Shown: one piece after another, positions 1 through 16,018 of the stretch
Layout of the letters: each line of letters begins with the position of its first letter
How positions within the stretch are numbered: the stretch's first letter is position 1
Assembly (NCBI GenBank): GCA_965217775.1
Contig: CBDCJH010000002.1
Span: forward strand, 5,152,001-5,216,000
Length of the DNA stretch: 64,000 bases
Direction of reading: 5' to 3'
Source of the DNA: Acidobacteriota bacterium
Lineage (GTDB): Bacteria; Acidobacteriota; UBA6911; RPQK01; JAJDTT01
Position numbers and translations under genes: made by a program
Notes under the pieces: model-generated
What the model was told of the DNA's origin: nothing
Databases searched by the model: none
Seen by the model: only the letters and a program-made list of their open reading frames with translations

Positions 1-2067
<2,067 letters not shown>

Positions 2068-2146
2068 CGGCGGGAAACCTCGCCGGTCCGACACCCCCGC
2101 CGCTGCCGGCAGGAGCGTCCGGGCAATATTGAATCGGCTGGGATTT

Positions 2147-2377
2147 ATGGTGGAACCTGATCGCAAGTCTGCGCATCATTCTCCGGAGGCCTGTCCGGAG
2201 TGCCGGTATACCTTGAGCCGGCGCAGCACGTGGTGTCCCTACTGCGGGGTTCAACTCACCCACCCACCCTGGAAGAAGGTGGGGGCCTGGATTCTGCTGG
2301 TGTTGATCGTCTACGGTCTGGTCCAGTGCCATTTGCGTTTGCTGGACGGCCCCGACGGTTTGAATTCGTTGCCTTGA
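2147..2377 (+). CDS. Small zinc-ribbon membrane protein
   Basis: CPEC...CPYCG followed by a hydrophobic helix; ATG 2147 is in frame with ORF 2057..2377. Confidence 0.6.
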   Translation: MVEPDRKSAHHSPEACPECRYTLSRRSTWCPYCGVQLTHPPWKKVGAWILLVLIVYGLVQCHLRLLDGPDGLNSLP

Positions 2378-3117
2378 GAGTTCCTGATTTGAAGACTCCC
2401 GGCTACCGGCACCACTGCGTGACCCACGTGGGCTGGGTGCGCCCCGTGAACGAAGACACGCTGATCGAGTCTCCGGAACATCATTTGTTTGGAGTGTGCG
2501 ACGGCATGGGAGGGCATGCCGCCGGAGAAGTGGCCAGTGCTCTGGCGGCTACGGTCTTCCGGCGCGTGATGGCAGCAGGTGTCCTGCCCCCGGCAGCGGC
2601 GCTGGGCGAGGCCATCCGCCAAGCGGACGAGGCGGTTTACCGGGACCAGATGGTCCACCCGGCGCACAAGGGAATGGGAACGACTCTCAGCGCGCTCCTT
2701 CTCTCCGGTTCGGCGCCGGATGAGGCCTGGATCGGACACGTGGGCGATAGTCGGGTATATCGGTGCCGGAATCAGAGATTGGACCAACTGACGACGGATC
2801 ACTCGCCGGTATTCCGCCTCTATCGGAAGGGTCTTCTCTCCAAGGAGCAGGCTCGCCGGCACCCGCACAAGCATATCGTGGAACAGGCGCTGGGGCTGAG
2901 CCCTCCGGTCGAGGCGGATATTTTTGCCGTGGACGTCCGACCCGGAGATCTCTTTCTGCTCTGCACCGATGGTTTGAGCGATCAGGTCGGAGATGTTGAG
3001 ATCGAAGACGTTTGCCGATCCGGATCCGTGCGCGCCAGGGCCCGTCACCTGGTGCAAGCCGCCAATTTCAAGGGTGGATTGGACAATGTTTCCGTGGTCG
3101 TCGTGCAGATCCTGTAA
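2374..3117 (+). CDS. PP2C-family Ser/Thr protein phosphatase (Stp1/PrpC-like)
   Basis: RPVNED, VCDGMGGHAAGEVAS, GMGTT, HVGDSRVY, LCTDGL and GGLDN motifs; start placed at TTG 2374 (uncertain). Confidence 0.9.
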   Translation: MRVPDLKTPGYRHHCVTHVGWVRPVNEDTLIESPEHHLFGVCDGMGGHAAGEVASALAATVFRRVMAAGVLPPAAALGEAIRQADEAVYRDQMVHPAHKGMGTTLSALLLSGSAPDEAWIGHVGDSRVYRCRNQRLDQLTTDHSPVFRLYRKGLLSKEQARRHPHKHIVEQALGLSPPVEADIFAVDVRPGDLFLLCTDGLSDQVGDVEIEDVCRSGSVRARARHLVQAANFKGGLDNVSVVVVQIL

Positions 3118-3260
3118 TGGATAGGAATGCTCCGCCACCGGCCCGGTCCGGCGGACGCATAGGAGAAATAGGCATCGAGTTCATCCGGCTCCGGCGTCCT
3201 CGACGAGACCATTTCCCCTGCCGGGCCCGCTGGGCGAAAACGACCCGCCTGTCTTCACTC

Positions 3261-3288
3261 TTTCCTATTTCCTCTTTCCTATTTCCTC
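3261..3288 (+). repeat. Heptamer tandem repeat (TTTCCTA/TTTCCTC) x4
   Basis: tttccta tttcctc tttccta tttcctc read directly, upstream of the amidohydrolase RBS. Confidence 0.8.
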
Positions 3289-3310
3289 TGTTTCTCAGAA
3301 GGGGAGTGCC

Positions 3311-4225
3311 ATGAAACCGAATGACGCGCATTGCCATTTCTTCTCCCGGAACTTTATCCGGACGCTGGCTGGTGAGAGGGGACTCCGGGGGGACGACCCC
3401 GCGGGCGACGCCTGCCGAATCCTGGCATGGGATCCGCCCGGCTCCAACGGAGAGTTGGCGGACCGTTGGGTTGCGGAGTTGGATCGCCACCAGGTCGGCC
3501 GGGCGGCGATCATCGCCAGCGTCCCGGAAGATGAAGAGTCGGTGGCGGAAGCCTTGGGCCGGCATCCTGGGCGCTTTGTCGGATTCTTCATGGTGGACCC
3601 GACGCGGCAGGCGGCCGCGGAACGGGTGACCCGGGCGGTCACCGAGCTGGGGCTCCGCTGCGCCTGCCTGTTTCCCGGGATGCACGGATATGAACTCTCG
3701 GACCCGCGGGTGCTTGGCCTGGTCGAGCGGCTGGCGTCCGTGCCCGGCACGGCGCTATTCGTTCATTGTGGTGTACTGACCGTCGGCGCCAGGAAGAAGC
3801 TGGGATTGCCGGCCCGATTCGACCTCAGGTATTCCAATCCCTTGAATGTACATCCATTGGCGCTGGCCTATCCCGAACTGCCGTTCATTCTCCCTCACTT
3901 CGGCGCCGGGATGTTCCGCGAGGCCCTCATGCTGGGAGACCTGTGTCCCAACGTCCACCTGGACACGTCCAGCTCCAATTCCTGGATTCGATACTCCGGG
4001 TTGACCCTGGAGCAGGTCTTCGCCCGCTCCCTCGAGATCCTGGGTCCGGACCGGATTCTGTTTGGAACCGACTCTTCATTCTTTCCGCGGGGCTGGCAAA
4101 GCCCGCTCTGGGAAGAGCAGTCCCGGATCTTGAAGCAAGTTGGCTTGGACCGGGAGGGCCGCCGCAAGATTCAGTCCGCCAACTTCGAGCGGCTCTTCCC
4201 CGTCAAAGGTTCCCCAGCAGTCTGA
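3311..4225 (+). CDS. Amidohydrolase family (Amidohydro_2-like) protein
   Basis: N-terminal DAHCH, VHCG, PHFG and C-terminal ILFGTDS metal-binding motifs. Confidence 0.85.
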   Translation: MKPNDAHCHFFSRNFIRTLAGERGLRGDDPAGDACRILAWDPPGSNGELADRWVAELDRHQVGRAAIIASVPEDEESVAEALGRHPGRFVGFFMVDPTRQAAAERVTRAVTELGLRCACLFPGMHGYELSDPRVLGLVERLASVPGTALFVHCGVLTVGARKKLGLPARFDLRYSNPLNVHPLALAYPELPFILPHFGAGMFREALMLGDLCPNVHLDTSSSNSWIRYSGLTLEQVFARSLEILGPDRILFGTDSSFFPRGWQSPLWEEQSRILKQVGLDREGRRKIQSANFERLFPVKGSPAV

Positions 4226-4667
4226 GTAGAAACGCCCTGGCCCGGTCGTAGACGCGAGGACTGGAGCTCTCCCGGGGACCCGCCACGTTCAGAACCCGGA
4301 TCCGGTGACGCCGGATCCATTCCAGAACCGGTTCGGTTCCGGGGTCCAGGTCCAGGTCCACCCGCCGGCATGGCCGCCCTCGGCGCCGGGCTCGGACCCA
4401 GGTGAGCCGGGTGCCGCCGTCCACTCGGGTCCGGAACAGGATGAGGGTCCCGTTCGAATCTCGAACGTTCCAGTCGGTTCTCTGGTGGTACCGGCGGAGA
4501 GGCGTCTCCCGGAGCGGATAGCGGGGATCGAGAGGACCGTCCTCGGCGCGGCGGCCCCTCGGGCACCAGCCGCCGCAATCGAGCGATAGCTCCAGAGCCA
4601 CGTCCAGAGCCGCGCGGTCGACTCCCGTTTGTCCTCCCGAGACGATGCGATTCGGTCGGCCTTCCAC
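4203..4667 (-). CDS. Putative molybdenum carrier / SLOG-family protein
   Basis: IVSGGQTGVDRAALD, GGWCPRGRRAEDG, RTDWNVRDSNGTL and LNVAGPRES motifs. Confidence 0.85.
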   Translation of the reverse strand: MEGRPNRIVSGGQTGVDRAALDVALELSLDCGGWCPRGRRAEDGPLDPRYPLRETPLRRYHQRTDWNVRDSNGTLILFRTRVDGGTRLTWVRARRRGRPCRRVDLDLDPGTEPVLEWIRRHRIRVLNVAGPRESSSPRVYDRARAFLLRLLGNL

Positions 4668-5014
4668 GTTGCGCCTGCGCTCTCGTACAGCGGGTTACGC
4701 ACCGGTTCGAATGGATCGACGATACTATCCGCCACGCATCAACCCGCCATCCGCCCCGGGGTTCCCCGGATACCACCAGAAGATGTCGAGTATACTCACG
4801 AGCGTCCGCCAGCCCGCCGATATCGAATCCGCGATGTTTCCCGGACTCCATTTCGTACGTGAGGCGTGTCTGGAAATGGCATCGTCAATTTTTTGTCAGG
4901 GGTCCAGGAAGAAAAAGTCGGAATTTAAAACAACCATATCGGTATAATGTTGTCTTGAACAGATGTCCCTGGAAAAAACTGCGAGGATGGGTTTGGGGGG
5001 CGATTTCAAAGGCA

Positions 5015-5100
5015 TGTGGACAAGGTGTGGATAAATTGTGACTGTATGAACCATAAGTGAAGTTGCTATTGCGGATAGGGTCTTGCAGCCGAAATCCACA
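5015..5100. promoter_or_regulatory. DnaA-box cluster
   Basis: TGTGGATAA 5026-5034 (perfect reverse complement of TTATCCACA), TGTGGACAA 5015-5023 (1 mismatch), TGCGGATAG 5070-5078 and AAATCCACA 5092-5100 (2 mismatches each), in an AT-rich tract. Confidence 0.55.
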
Positions 5101-5134
5101 AGAAAAAGGCTCAATTTCTTGGTGAAATTTCTGG

Positions 5135-5162
5135 TTGCGCGGTTCGGAGAAAGGCATAGAAT
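5135..5162 (+). promoter_or_regulatory. Sigma70-type promoter for the structured RNA
   Basis: TTGCGC (5135-5140)-N16-TAGAAT (5157-5162); predicted start ~5169-5170 coincides with the base of the closing stem. Same architecture as the tRNA-Phe promoter in this window. Confidence 0.65.
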
Positions 5163-5168
5163 CTCCCT

Positions 5169-5645
5169 TGTCCCAAGGGGTAAACGCAAGTTGGCCCCGA
5201 GGCGGCGCCGGTCGCAAGCGGTCGATCCGGCTCCAGGGTTTCGGCCTTGAAGGTGGGGAGGCGGCCAGTGGCGGGCGGGCGAGTTCCTCAGCCGGTTTTG
5301 ATCGATTGAGGGGCAAGCGCCGAAGAGGCGCGCCGGATCTGCCGGAGCCTTCGGGCGAGGGTAGCGAAGGCGAGTGTTCAGAGGCTGCTTTCGGGGGTGC
5401 GGCTCCAGGGCGGCGGGTTGCTTCGGATTGGCGTGAACCGGTTGTTACCGGGGAACCTCAATGAAGGACGGCCCCCCTGGAGAGGAGCGGAAGTCGTCAG
5501 GGGCAAGGGCAGGTTCCTTCGGGACTTGGTCGAACACGGCGGCAGATGCTCCACTTGGGGGCACGGAAACTGGCCCCATTCGGGTCGGCAGAGAGTGCCT
5601 TTCGAGGCCGTGCAACTCGCGAATATCACTTGGGACACTTTTTTT
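5169..5645 (+). ncRNA. Large (~470 nt) highly structured non-coding RNA candidate, class not recognised
   Basis: Closing stem 5169-5193/5613-5637 (21 of 25 pairs); nested helices 5221-5230/5580-5589, 5251-5258/5549-5556, 5337-5344/5540-5547, 5374-5379/5532-5537; UUCG at 5240, 5350, 5390, 5422, 5518, 5601; T7 tract 5639-5645; no credible ORF. Confidence 0.75.
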
Positions 5646-5762
5646 CTTCCGGGCGCTCGTTCCCAGGCATCATCGGTTCCTTCCCGTGCAGTGAGTGTTG
5701 ACTTGCTGCGATCCATTTCGTTCTTTTTCCGTCGTCGCCGTTAGAGTAATCGTTGGATCTCC

Positions 5763-5790
5763 CGCGGGGTATATTACGCGGGGTATATTA
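5763..5790 (+). repeat. Perfect 14-bp tandem duplication CGCGGGGTATATTA x2 upstream of lysC
   Basis: Read directly; each unit contains a -10-like TATATT. Confidence 0.85.
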
Positions 5791-5820
5791 CGGTTTCTCG
5801 AAATCGCGTGAGATGAAGCT

Positions 5821-7203
5821 GTGATCGTTCTCAAATTCGGTGGGACGTCAGTTCAAGGCACGGACGCGGTGACGCGGGCCGTCCAGGTGATTCGGCGCCA
5901 ATTGTCCCGGGGCGAGGTCGTGGTCCTGTCCGCCATGGGCAAGACCACCAATGGACTGTTGGAGATGGCACGAACCGCCTCGTCCGGGGACATCGATTCC
6001 GCGTGGGCGATACGGGACGACCTGAGCGCGTTGCACGAGGCGGTGGCGCGTGAGCTCCTCTCGGGCCGCCGCTGGAAGAGTGTGGAAACGTCGCTGGCGG
6101 CCCTCTTCCGGGAGATGACCGATATCGTGCAGGGACTCTATCTGCTGGGTGAGACCAGTCCCCGGAGCATGGACCGTGTCGGGTCCTTCGGCGAACGCTT
6201 GAGCACGCTGATTTTCTCTGAAGTCCTCAGGGAAAACGGAATCCCTGCCGAGTTGGTGGACTCACGAGATCTGATCCGAACCGACGACCACTTCACCCAG
6301 GCTGCCGTCTTGCAGGAACTCACCCGGAACTGCGTCCGGGAACAGCTCCTGCCTCGGCTGCGCGCCGGAAAGGTGATCGTCGCGCCGGGCTTCATCGGCT
6401 CCACGGTAGACGGGGTCACGACCACCATCGGGCGCGGAGGGTCCGATTACACGGCCGCCCTGATCGGAGCCGCACTGGATGCCGAGGACATCCAGATCTG
6501 GACCGATGTTCCGGGCGTTCTCACCGCGGATCCCCGGATTGTTCCGGGCGTCTACAAGATTCACGCCATCTCCTTCGCCGAAGCAGCCGAGTTGGCCTAT
6601 TTCGGGGCCAAGGTGCTCCATCCCAGCACGCTGACACCGGCCATCGATCGGGACATCCCCGTGCATGTCTGCAACTCCAGGCAGATCGACGAGCGGGGAA
6701 CCTTCATTTCCGCGGCCCCCGTCTCCTCCTCCAGTCCCATCAAGTCCATTGCCTGCAAGCGGGGCATCACCATCGTCAACATTCTGTCCACCCAGATGCT
6801 GCTCTCTTACGGCTTCCTGCGCCGGATCTTCGAGGTGTTCGAGACTCACGAAACGGTGGTGGACGTGGTGGCCACTTCCGAGGTCAACGTCTCCCTGACC
6901 GTCGATTCCTCGCAGGAGCTGGAGGCGATCGGCAGCGATCTGGCGGAGTTCGGCGAGGTCCGGGTGGCCCCCGACATGGCCATCATCTGCACCGTGGGCG
7001 AGGACGTGAAGAAAACCCCCGGGATCGCGGCGCGGATCTTCGGGGCTCTGGAGGGGATCAACGTGCAAATGATCTCCCAGGGGGCGTCCCGTATCAACAT
7101 GACATTTCTGGTTGCGGAAGACACAATGGAGGAGGCCGTCCGGCTGCTCCACAACGAGTTCTTCCGGCAGCCGGACCCGGAGTTGTTCGAGCCCGTCGAG
7201 TAA
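5821..7203 (+). CDS. lysC: Aspartokinase (lysine-sensitive type)
   Basis: VLKFGGTSV, TTIGRGGSDYTA, WTDVPG, GAKVLHP and C-terminal ACT domains; first gene of the dap operon. Confidence 0.95.
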   Translation: MIVLKFGGTSVQGTDAVTRAVQVIRRQLSRGEVVVLSAMGKTTNGLLEMARTASSGDIDSAWAIRDDLSALHEAVARELLSGRRWKSVETSLAALFREMTDIVQGLYLLGETSPRSMDRVGSFGERLSTLIFSEVLRENGIPAELVDSRDLIRTDDHFTQAAVLQELTRNCVREQLLPRLRAGKVIVAPGFIGSTVDGVTTTIGRGGSDYTAALIGAALDAEDIQIWTDVPGVLTADPRIVPGVYKIHAISFAEAAELAYFGAKVLHPSTLTPAIDRDIPVHVCNSRQIDERGTFISAAPVSSSSPIKSIACKRGITIVNILSTQMLLSYGFLRRIFEVFETHETVVDVVATSEVNVSLTVDSSQELEAIGSDLAEFGEVRVAPDMAIICTVGEDVKKTPGIAARIFGALEGINVQMISQGASRINMTFLVAEDTMEEAVRLLHNEFFRQPDPELFEPVE

Positions 7204-15945: not shown

Positions 15946-16018
15946 GCCGGGGTAGCTCAGTCGGTAGAGCAGGGGACTGAAAATCCCCGTGTCGGCGGTT
16001 CGATTCCGTCCCCCGGCA
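15946..16018 (+). tRNA. tRNA-Phe(GAA)
   Basis: Acceptor stem GCCGGGG/CCCCGGC, D arm AGCTCAGTCGGTAGAGC, anticodon arm GGGGA-CTGAAAA-TCCCC, T loop GGTTCGATTCC; followed by CCC rather than CCA. Confidence 0.97.

Follow-up and report, generated by a model that had tools for sequence, protein, structure and literature searches.

Does a region of some 470 nucleotides (nt), preceded by a promoter-like sequence and able to pair with itself from end to end, encode an RNA, and if so, of what kind? The question is raised by a window of 64,000 nt, by which we mean the whole stretch of DNA that was analysed, from an Acidobacteriota bacterium (contig CBDCJH010000002.1, positions 5,152,001 to 5,216,000 of the forward strand; plain coordinates below are counted from its first letter). 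An earlier note, written from the letters of this window, had proposed there an independently transcribed large non-coding RNA (ncRNA), maybe of a new class. Comparison bears the proposal out, through a conserved promoter and T-run, covariation, presence across a whole order, varied neighbours and RNA contigs confined to the gene. That the locus is a real RNA gene we regard as practically certain. We also think it probable that the complete description holds, namely that this is a highly expressed structured ncRNA of about 470 nt, a near-universal chromosomal gene of one Acidobacteriota order, with a terminal rod that would serve in docking and in termination.

The gene body spans 5170-5636 on the + strand (467 nt, from G1 through the final C of the closing helix). 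It begins at 5170 with GUCCCAAGGGGUA and ends at 5624-5636 with UAUCACUUGGGAC. The 45 full-length members that we could assemble all have in common the promoter geometry, a nearly invariant 5' strand (GUCCCAAGGGGU), a complementary 3' strand and a T-run. All 45 distinct loci have a TANNNT hexamer upstream of the start, and in 43 of them exactly 7 nt separate it from the first G; the spacer from TTG to hexamer is 16 nt in 35 of the 39 loci that bear the TTG; and at least five consecutive T lie no more than 14 nt past the closing helix in every locus. Most homologous loci also have a T-rich stretch 5' of the -35 element. The TTGCGC of this window matches three of the six positions of the -35 consensus, and we call the promoter because of the comparison of 45 loci, not because of a consensus match. 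The conserved geometry then places the start at G5170. On these points the earlier reading was accurate: the TTGCGC-N16-TAGAAT promoter that it described is present and its geometry is kept across the 45 loci, a similar architecture (TTGCAG-N17-TAGAAT) is indeed found upstream of the gene for the phenylalanine transfer RNA (tRNA-Phe) at 15946, the start given as ~5169-5170 falls on G5170 by the conserved distance to the -10 element, and seven T do follow the closing stem. A consensus terminator scan of 4900-5900 found no local hairpin before the T-run, inside which the transcript probably ends.

Is the gene expressed? The stretch or parts of it occur in 24 listed public runs, eight of which are recorded as RNA. 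We compared three metatranscriptome runs, all from one study, with one DNA-type run over positions 4600-6400. In the RNA runs the word depth was 0 over 4661-5148, about 500-4700 over 5186-5635 and 0-19 from 5637 on, lysC included, whereas in the DNA run it was even across all three regions (about 50-190). Depth over the RNA gene is thus two to three orders above that of the neighbouring gene in the three RNA libraries. The RNA contigs stop at 5632-5635 in all three runs while the DNA run continues, which, coming from one study, is a weak hint as to the 3' end. RNA runs of other studies hold shares of just 0.15-0.18 of the stretch and were not counted as evidence. We assign the gene to the + strand because of the orientation of promoter and T-run, the fold statistics and the G-U pairs, of which more below.

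Could this be an RNA that is already known, or a gene for a protein? Rfam 15 (4227 models), run over the whole window at the gathering score, gave no match at the RNA locus, nor did it at E<=10 over 4900-5850, which was the scan that the earlier note had advised, or at E<=0.1 over 12 loci with divergent members. The only Rfam matches in the window were a group II intron domain (RF02005, 13908-14130, 161 bits) and tRNA-Phe (15946-16018). The usual housekeeping RNAs have genes of their own at other places in the genome: RNase P RNA (291 bits), transfer-messenger RNA (tmRNA, 190 bits), signal recognition particle (SRP) RNA (66 and 138 bits) and, at C2:6233611-6233788, a 6S RNA above its cut-off (54.3 bits). 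The earlier statement that the locus is none of these four was correct, since it matches no Rfam model and all four lie elsewhere. A protein-coding region was rejected as well: the three open reading frames (ORFs) spanning the RNA have no Pfam match, and among ten copies from the same genus every one of the eight gap runs is a single nucleotide, and none of the frames stays open throughout. In the open literature, supplementary motif lists lying outside the search, we found no published account of a large ncRNA of Acidobacteria, and the end motifs, searched as text strings, occur in no relevant paper. The supplementary list of candidate motifs of a large comparative survey could already include this RNA. 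All in all, we think it very likely that neither Rfam nor the open literature searched contains this RNA. On present evidence it is a new class, far from every known family, that belongs by its general character among the ornate large RNAs.

How widespread is the gene? By BLAST, the whole 526-base query was found at 85-94% identity in all eight genomes of the same genus and both of its ends in all six of the sister genus, and three other families have its last 27 bases with hardly a change; overall, 19 of 41 genomes gave a match. A search of one genome per species (185,579 species) for exact matches to a 20-base pattern from the 3' end yielded 66 loci. In 43 of them the 5' motif is present 240-700 bases upstream, and the titles of all 43 read Acidobacteria, Acidobacteriota, Aminicenantes or 'uncultured bacterium'; the other 23 are cut by contig ends or come from unrelated phyla, and are taken as mostly chance matches. 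Adding the loci found earlier gave 45 distinct full-length sequences of 242-695 nt, mostly 394-483 nt. The shortest (L046, 242 nt) comes from a genome flagged as unpublished (G016), without which the tallies shift by one. We also built a covariance model (R1) from the 3' 100 positions of the RNA; it matched 67 of the 76 genomes of the order (45 of the 52 of high quality), with one or two matches per genome. Two of the nine genomes negative for R1 hold full members with a different 3' domain, L152 (598 nt) and L151 (485 nt), which were found by the 5' motif; in three genomes of genus g22 no copy was detected. Elsewhere in the class R1 gave only weak matches (E 0.003-0.007) in 4 of 61 genomes, and none in the 51 of the largest other family.

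Genuine pairs of paralogues do exist: the sister genus has them, as do several other genera. An apparent second copy on contig C1 (144,268 bases) of genome G000 was rejected as a paralogue, since it looks like assembly redundancy: C1 carries the same tRNA-Cys, tRNA-Asp and tRNA-Phe genes as C2 around 5.16-5.26 Mb, in inverted order, its flanks are near-identical to the C2 region, and its copy of the RNA is 98% identical. C1 is apparently a second haplotype or strain that remained in the assembly, in keeping with the contamination figure of 7.5%. A mobile element was rejected on the searches of viral contigs and plasmids, with 0 and 0 matches. A scan of metagenomes with a 16-nt 5' motif gave, among the matches listed, 84 occurrences in 80 loci with a 3' partner in one; the motif is too short for such a collection, and the scan therefore carries no information on habitat. 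Two observations stand beside this census. L142 and L143, from a family outside the order, are weak R1 matches with a perfect ATCACTTGGGAC 3' motif, followed in L142 also by a T-run; about 860 bases upstream of them hold no convincing 5' partner, and they may be longer or rearranged distant relatives. One contig of the DNA-type run X1, with a depth of 14 and only 20 letters on its shorter side, joins 5189 to 5623 and skips 433 bases; either a graph artefact arising at the conserved ends or a relative that is much shorter may lie behind it.

The most peculiar trait of the family is the way in which its conservation is distributed. Numbered from the first base of the RNA (1 = 5170), the terminal rod consists of P1a (1-8/460-467), a G-A mismatch (9/459) and P1b (10-13/455-458); a tandem purine-purine loop (14-15/453-454) and helix P2 (16-24/444-452) come next. 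This is the closing stem of the earlier note, predicted as 5170-5193 with 5613-5636 by single-sequence folding as well as by RNAalifold. The 5' strand of the rod shows no difference among the 20 full-length sequences of our MAFFT alignment A1. Each of the 45 distinct members, which had themselves been chosen by at most one mismatch in the 5' motif, departs from it at one position at most, and the same holds for divergent families. The 18-nt pattern of its 3' strand with the T-run occurs in 44 of the 76 genomes of the order, and a reversed control pattern in none. The 5' strand varies less than the 3' strand. Such changes as the rod does show preserve its pairing: family f14 has U2-G in place of U2-A, several groups have G13-C for A13-U, and in L151 mismatch and wobble are both replaced by Watson-Crick pairs. 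P2, right next to it, passes through CGC/GCG, CAC/GUG, AGC/GCU, CGG/CCG and other pair types, and covaries across 64 members, its extension included. The interior of the RNA falls to about half identity and its length varies nearly threefold, whereas the rod is nearly invariant. Since the rod is fixed in sequence while the adjacent P2 covaries freely, it appears to be recognised by its sequence and not merely for its pairing. Candidates for this recognition are a protein, a second copy of the RNA or a different region of the same molecule; the 5' strand might instead be read by the transcription machinery, at the level of DNA or early RNA.

In the fold predicted by comparison of relatives, four covarying domains meet in a junction that the rod closes (Table 1). 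RNAalifold found the same architecture each time in four separate groups, namely this genus, the two paralogue groups of the sister genus and one group of family f7. On A1 its consensus has 105 pairs, and compensatory change is seen in 44. P3, which closes domain I (26-37/215-227 in RNA numbering), has 10 pairs in A1 with 96.5% of cells paired and two compensatory pairs. The helices of domain II (9-12) are 90-97.5% paired with compensatory change in 9 of 15 pairs, and those of domain III (13-16) have it in 10 of 16. Domain IV, the internal loop of which carries conserved GAAAC and AGAG, was also counted over A3, a set of 63 distinct sequences from across the order aligned by their fit to R1: all 14 of its pairs are compensatory, and the paired share of cells is 90.5%, where slid partners give 36-55%. 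For the supported fold as a whole, 94.5% of cells in A1 are paired against 36-50% with slid partners, changes on both sides occur in 45 pairs against 14-19, and the covariation score is 0.436 against 0.08-0.14, a value reached by none of 500 shuffles. The fold also has a strand. As a single sequence the + strand reaches -235.5 kcal/mol (z -2.89), which none of 100 shuffles equals, and the - strand a z of -1.24, equalled by 11 of 100. Of the 2088 paired cells, 465 (22%) are G-U, and the same helices read on the - strand are just 72.2% paired, so that the preference for the + strand that the earlier note had drawn from its G-U pairs stands.

The interior, as first drawn, fared less well. Four nested long-range helices had been proposed (5221-5230/5580-5589, 5251-5258/5549-5556, 5337-5344/5540-5547 and 5374-5379/5532-5537). 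They are complementary in this sequence but find no support in relatives: over 20 of them 68.1% of cells are paired, and the covariation score of 0.173, against 0.09-0.12 with slid partners, is equalled by 40 of 500 shuffles. On these figures, and because they clash with covarying helices, those of domain IV among them, we replaced them by the four-domain model. A GAAA-capped hairpin at 5558-5577 is likewise incompatible with domain IV and its 14 compensatory pairs. Six UUCG motifs had been counted, where the + strand RNA holds seven (5240, 5350, 5390, 5422, 5518, 5579 and 5601). Of the four described as clear hairpin caps, those at 5240, 5350 and 5518 keep this role, and that at 5601 falls within a helix strand of the supported fold; the motif at 5579 caps a hairpin, and those at 5390 and 5422 sit in helix strands. 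Over the 3-kb locus TTCG is not enriched (39 found, 40 expected).

Table 1. Features of the RNA gene in window coordinates; P1 to P3 are helices, and RNA numbering counts from position 5170
Feature	Position	Strand	Remarks
-35 element TTGCGC	5135-5140	+	Read from the sequence; TTG 16-18 nt above the -10 element in 39 of 45 distinct homologous loci
-10 element TAGAAT	5157-5162	+	Read from the sequence; 16-nt spacer from the -35 element; ends 7 nt before G1
Terminal rod, 5' strand	5170-5182	+	P1a 5170-5177; unpaired G 5178 (faces A 5628); P1b 5179-5182
Tandem purine internal loop	5183-5184 facing 5622-5623	+	Next to P2
P2	5185-5193 with 5613-5621	+	Covaries in A1 and over 64 members
Domain I	5195-5396	+	P3 5195-5206/5384-5396; three arms; UUCG-capped hairpins at 5240 and 5350
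Domain II	5403-5482 (RNA 234-313)	+	Outer helix 5403-5414/5471-5482
Domain III	5484-5552 (RNA 315-383)	+	Outer helix 5484-5489/5547-5552; UUCG-capped tip at 5518
Domain IV	5554-5606 (RNA 385-437)	+	Outer helix 5554-5564/5595-5606; inner hairpin 5570-5576/5582-5588
Terminal rod, 3' strand	5624-5636	+	P1b 5624-5627; A 5628; P1a 5629-5636
T7 run	5639-5645	+	Two bases past the closing helix; presumed 3'-end signal

What might such a molecule do? The reading that we prefer, and for which we see the case as evenly balanced, is that of a stable scaffold acting in trans, the rod of which would be both a docking and a terminator element. The zipping of this long-range rod would itself be the intrinsic terminator, with release once the 3' strand pairs with the waiting 5' end. 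We suggest this because there is no local hairpin before the U-run and the U-run always lies about two bases past the rod. Both ends of the RNA would then be buried, and protected, in a helix of 12 bp or more, as would fit a stable and abundant RNA. The rod is in addition most likely a sequence-specific docking site, either for a protein or for tertiary or quaternary contacts of the RNA itself, because it keeps its sequence while the other ~430 nt diverge under structural constraint. The RNA as a whole would act in trans, as a scaffold or as a component of a ribonucleoprotein, and not as the leader of a messenger RNA. One might go further and see in it a new RNA of housekeeping rank, specific to the order, that would be a ribozyme or the RNA core of a particle or of an RNA-only assembly, the whole molecule being its own intrinsic terminator. 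This stronger version is possible but we find it doubtful.

Several points weigh against the scaffold reading or against parts of the evidence behind it. It is the pattern of conservation alone from which we infer the scaffold and docking role. The constancy of the 5' strand could reflect a constraint at the level of DNA or of the initial transcribed sequence instead of recognition of the RNA, and the lysine-pathway genes that lie downstream of about half of the members give a regulatory link some plausibility. The supported fold was derived from A1 and then counted on A1, and A3 was fitted to its own model, both of which inflate pairing. The alignment of the interior between groups is uncertain, and the covariance model R1 covers just the 3' domain. 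A simple scan for sigma-70 promoter and terminator consensus over 4900-5900 returned nothing. Finally, the expression data are assembled contigs of one study, which give neither strand, exact ends nor true level, and which begin at 5186 instead of 5170.

With these reservations, how does the scaffold reading compare with other explanations? The RNA could be self-sufficient, a ribozyme or a homo-oligomeric assembly made of RNA only, as is reported for ROOL, GOLLD and OLE, in which case the motifs of rod and junction would be tertiary or quaternary contacts. Ornate RNA-only complexes are the subject of PMC12286853. The present RNA is large and abundant, has four covarying domains, and keeps certain nucleotides in junctions and internal loops (the GAAAC and AGAG of domain IV, the sequence of P3). 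With OLE, ROOL, GOLLD and raiA it shares a size of several hundred nt, a covarying fold of several domains, its own transcription unit, abundance and restriction to a lineage. It differs from them in belonging to Acidobacteriota, in lying off phage and plasmid DNA and in matching no Rfam model; neither sequence nor model similarity links it to ROOL, GOLLD or OLE. Those RNAs have a conserved core, whereas here an invariant rod joins the two ends and the interior, with members of 242-695 nt, is highly variable in sequence, unlike a tightly conserved catalytic core. Nor did inspection of the alignments, by eye only, reveal a conserved self-complementary loop. We therefore consider a self-sufficient RNA unlikely. 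A regulator that binds RNA polymerase, like 6S RNA or the mycobacterial Ms1, is a still poorer candidate; 6S RNA binds the RNA polymerase holoenzyme and serves as template for product RNAs. Such RNAs are also abundant and stand-alone with paired ends, and the earlier note had entertained an expanded version of them. This suggestion is disfavoured by the canonical 6S gene elsewhere in the genome, by the failure of the Rfam 6S model to match here, and by the fold, which is a branched junction of four domains and not a long rod with a central bubble. RNase P RNA, tmRNA and SRP RNA resemble the new RNA in being near-universal in a clade, in having one or two copies and in their strong-promoter features, but they have their own genes in this genome, and the new RNA is restricted to one order.

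The neighbourhood of the gene suggests a leader or attenuator acting in cis on a downstream operon of the lysine and threonine pathway (asd-lysC-dapB-dapA), with the rod and T-run as a regulated terminator. An aspartokinase gene (AA_kinase and ACT domains, 5821-7203 onward) begins about 180-185 nt past the RNA on the same strand; in relatives dapB and dapA follow the aspartokinase and, outside this genus, asd precedes it. Genes of this pathway lie downstream in about half of the members. On the same strand, asd and/or aspartokinase, dapB and dapA are found in this genus, in one paralogue of the sister genus, in members of family f7 and in L046 and L072. Upstream position in part of the family and an end made of helix and T-run are also what the RNA has in common with the lysine riboswitch and other leaders of amino-acid operons. 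Yet elsewhere in the family the gene downstream is an unrelated one (thioredoxin-NHL, IspH, ThuA, LptD, EcsC), and in the second paralogue group of the sister genus the downstream gene is convergent (with a transposase in L045 of that group). Because downstream genes vary, with one group convergent, and because RNA depth collapses past the U-run, from thousands to 0-19, we rejected a lysine-operon leader, and a cis role of this kind is in our view very improbable. A spacer of about 180 nt separates the RNA from lysC, and the Rfam 15 scans gave no match to the lysine riboswitch or the T-box. Y RNA, bound by the Ro (Rsr) protein, comes to mind at the sight of paired ends and of a sequence-conserved end stem with an internal mismatch, followed by a U-run, around a variable interior; the rod has a presumed likeness to Y RNA stems. 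Y RNAs are about 100 nt long (about 70-120), have a stem that binds Ro and in bacteria a tRNA-like domain, and the gene for Ro60/Rsr is usually close by. The present RNA, at ~470 nt, is four to five times their size, a tRNA-like module was undetected in it, and the Rfam Y RNA models do not match it. The TROVE domain (PF05731) of Ro is found neither in this genome nor in any of 76 genomes of the order, although the Deinococcus and Bacteroides controls match. On this absence the Y RNA was rejected, and we give it almost no credence. A regulator of the small-RNA type, dependent on Hfq or acting as a sponge for CsrA, by base pairing or by titration of protein, would account for the terminator-like 3' end with its U-tail and for the several hairpins. 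It has very little in its favour beyond these traits: a search for CsrA (PF02599) in the genome, 97.9% complete, gave no match, so that a CsrA sponge of the CsrB/RsmZ type, which would have many GGA-containing loops, was rejected; the match to Hfq is below threshold (23.9 bits for a cut-off of 27); the most conserved stretch is locked in a helix; and UUCG is the only repeated loop motif seen.

Large, highly structured bacterial RNAs are rarely discovered, and RNase P, tmRNA, OLE, ROOL, GOLLD and raiA each started a line of biochemistry. The RNA described here is near-universal in an order of a poorly studied and mostly uncultured phylum, and ranks with the most abundant transcripts in the libraries examined. 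Its combination of an invariant rod with a structured body that evolves freely is an unusual pattern, and the rod offers a handle both on the partner of the RNA and on long-range termination. More than 45 diverse sequences with a conserved promoter suffice to seed a family model and thus to annotate a gene that is now invisible in metagenome-assembled genomes.

Some minor observations concern the surroundings of the gene. A palindrome, TGCAC-N7-GTGCA, is centred near -67 (about -57 to -77) in 28 of the 45 loci, for example in L051, L036 and L011, and is probably the site of a dedicated regulator. This genus has another sequence in its place, and L096 has TCCACA-N4-TGTGGA. Counted genome-wide in five genomes, the palindrome occurs about twice as often as the control, and no regulon could be read from its positions. 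Two adjacent 9-mers, TGTGGACAA and TGTGGATAA, lie at 5018-5036 (and 5081-5101), about 140 nt before the start of the RNA, and are kept in all ten copies from the same genus. The second, read in reverse complement, matches the classical DnaA-box consensus perfectly. Judged by GC skew and by the place where DnaA boxes cluster most densely, the replication origin appears to lie near C2:5.00-5.01 Mb. Because this is about 145 kb from the RNA gene, the boxes may be a regulatory DnaA site rather than oriC. Just 5' of the start of the aspartokinase gene, at 5763-5790, the 14-mer CGCGGGGTATATTA is repeated twice in tandem, where other copies of the same genus differ. On the other side, a 226-residue ORF without Pfam match (4171-4851, - strand) is divergent from the RNA gene, and ORFs recur at the same position in loci of the same genus.

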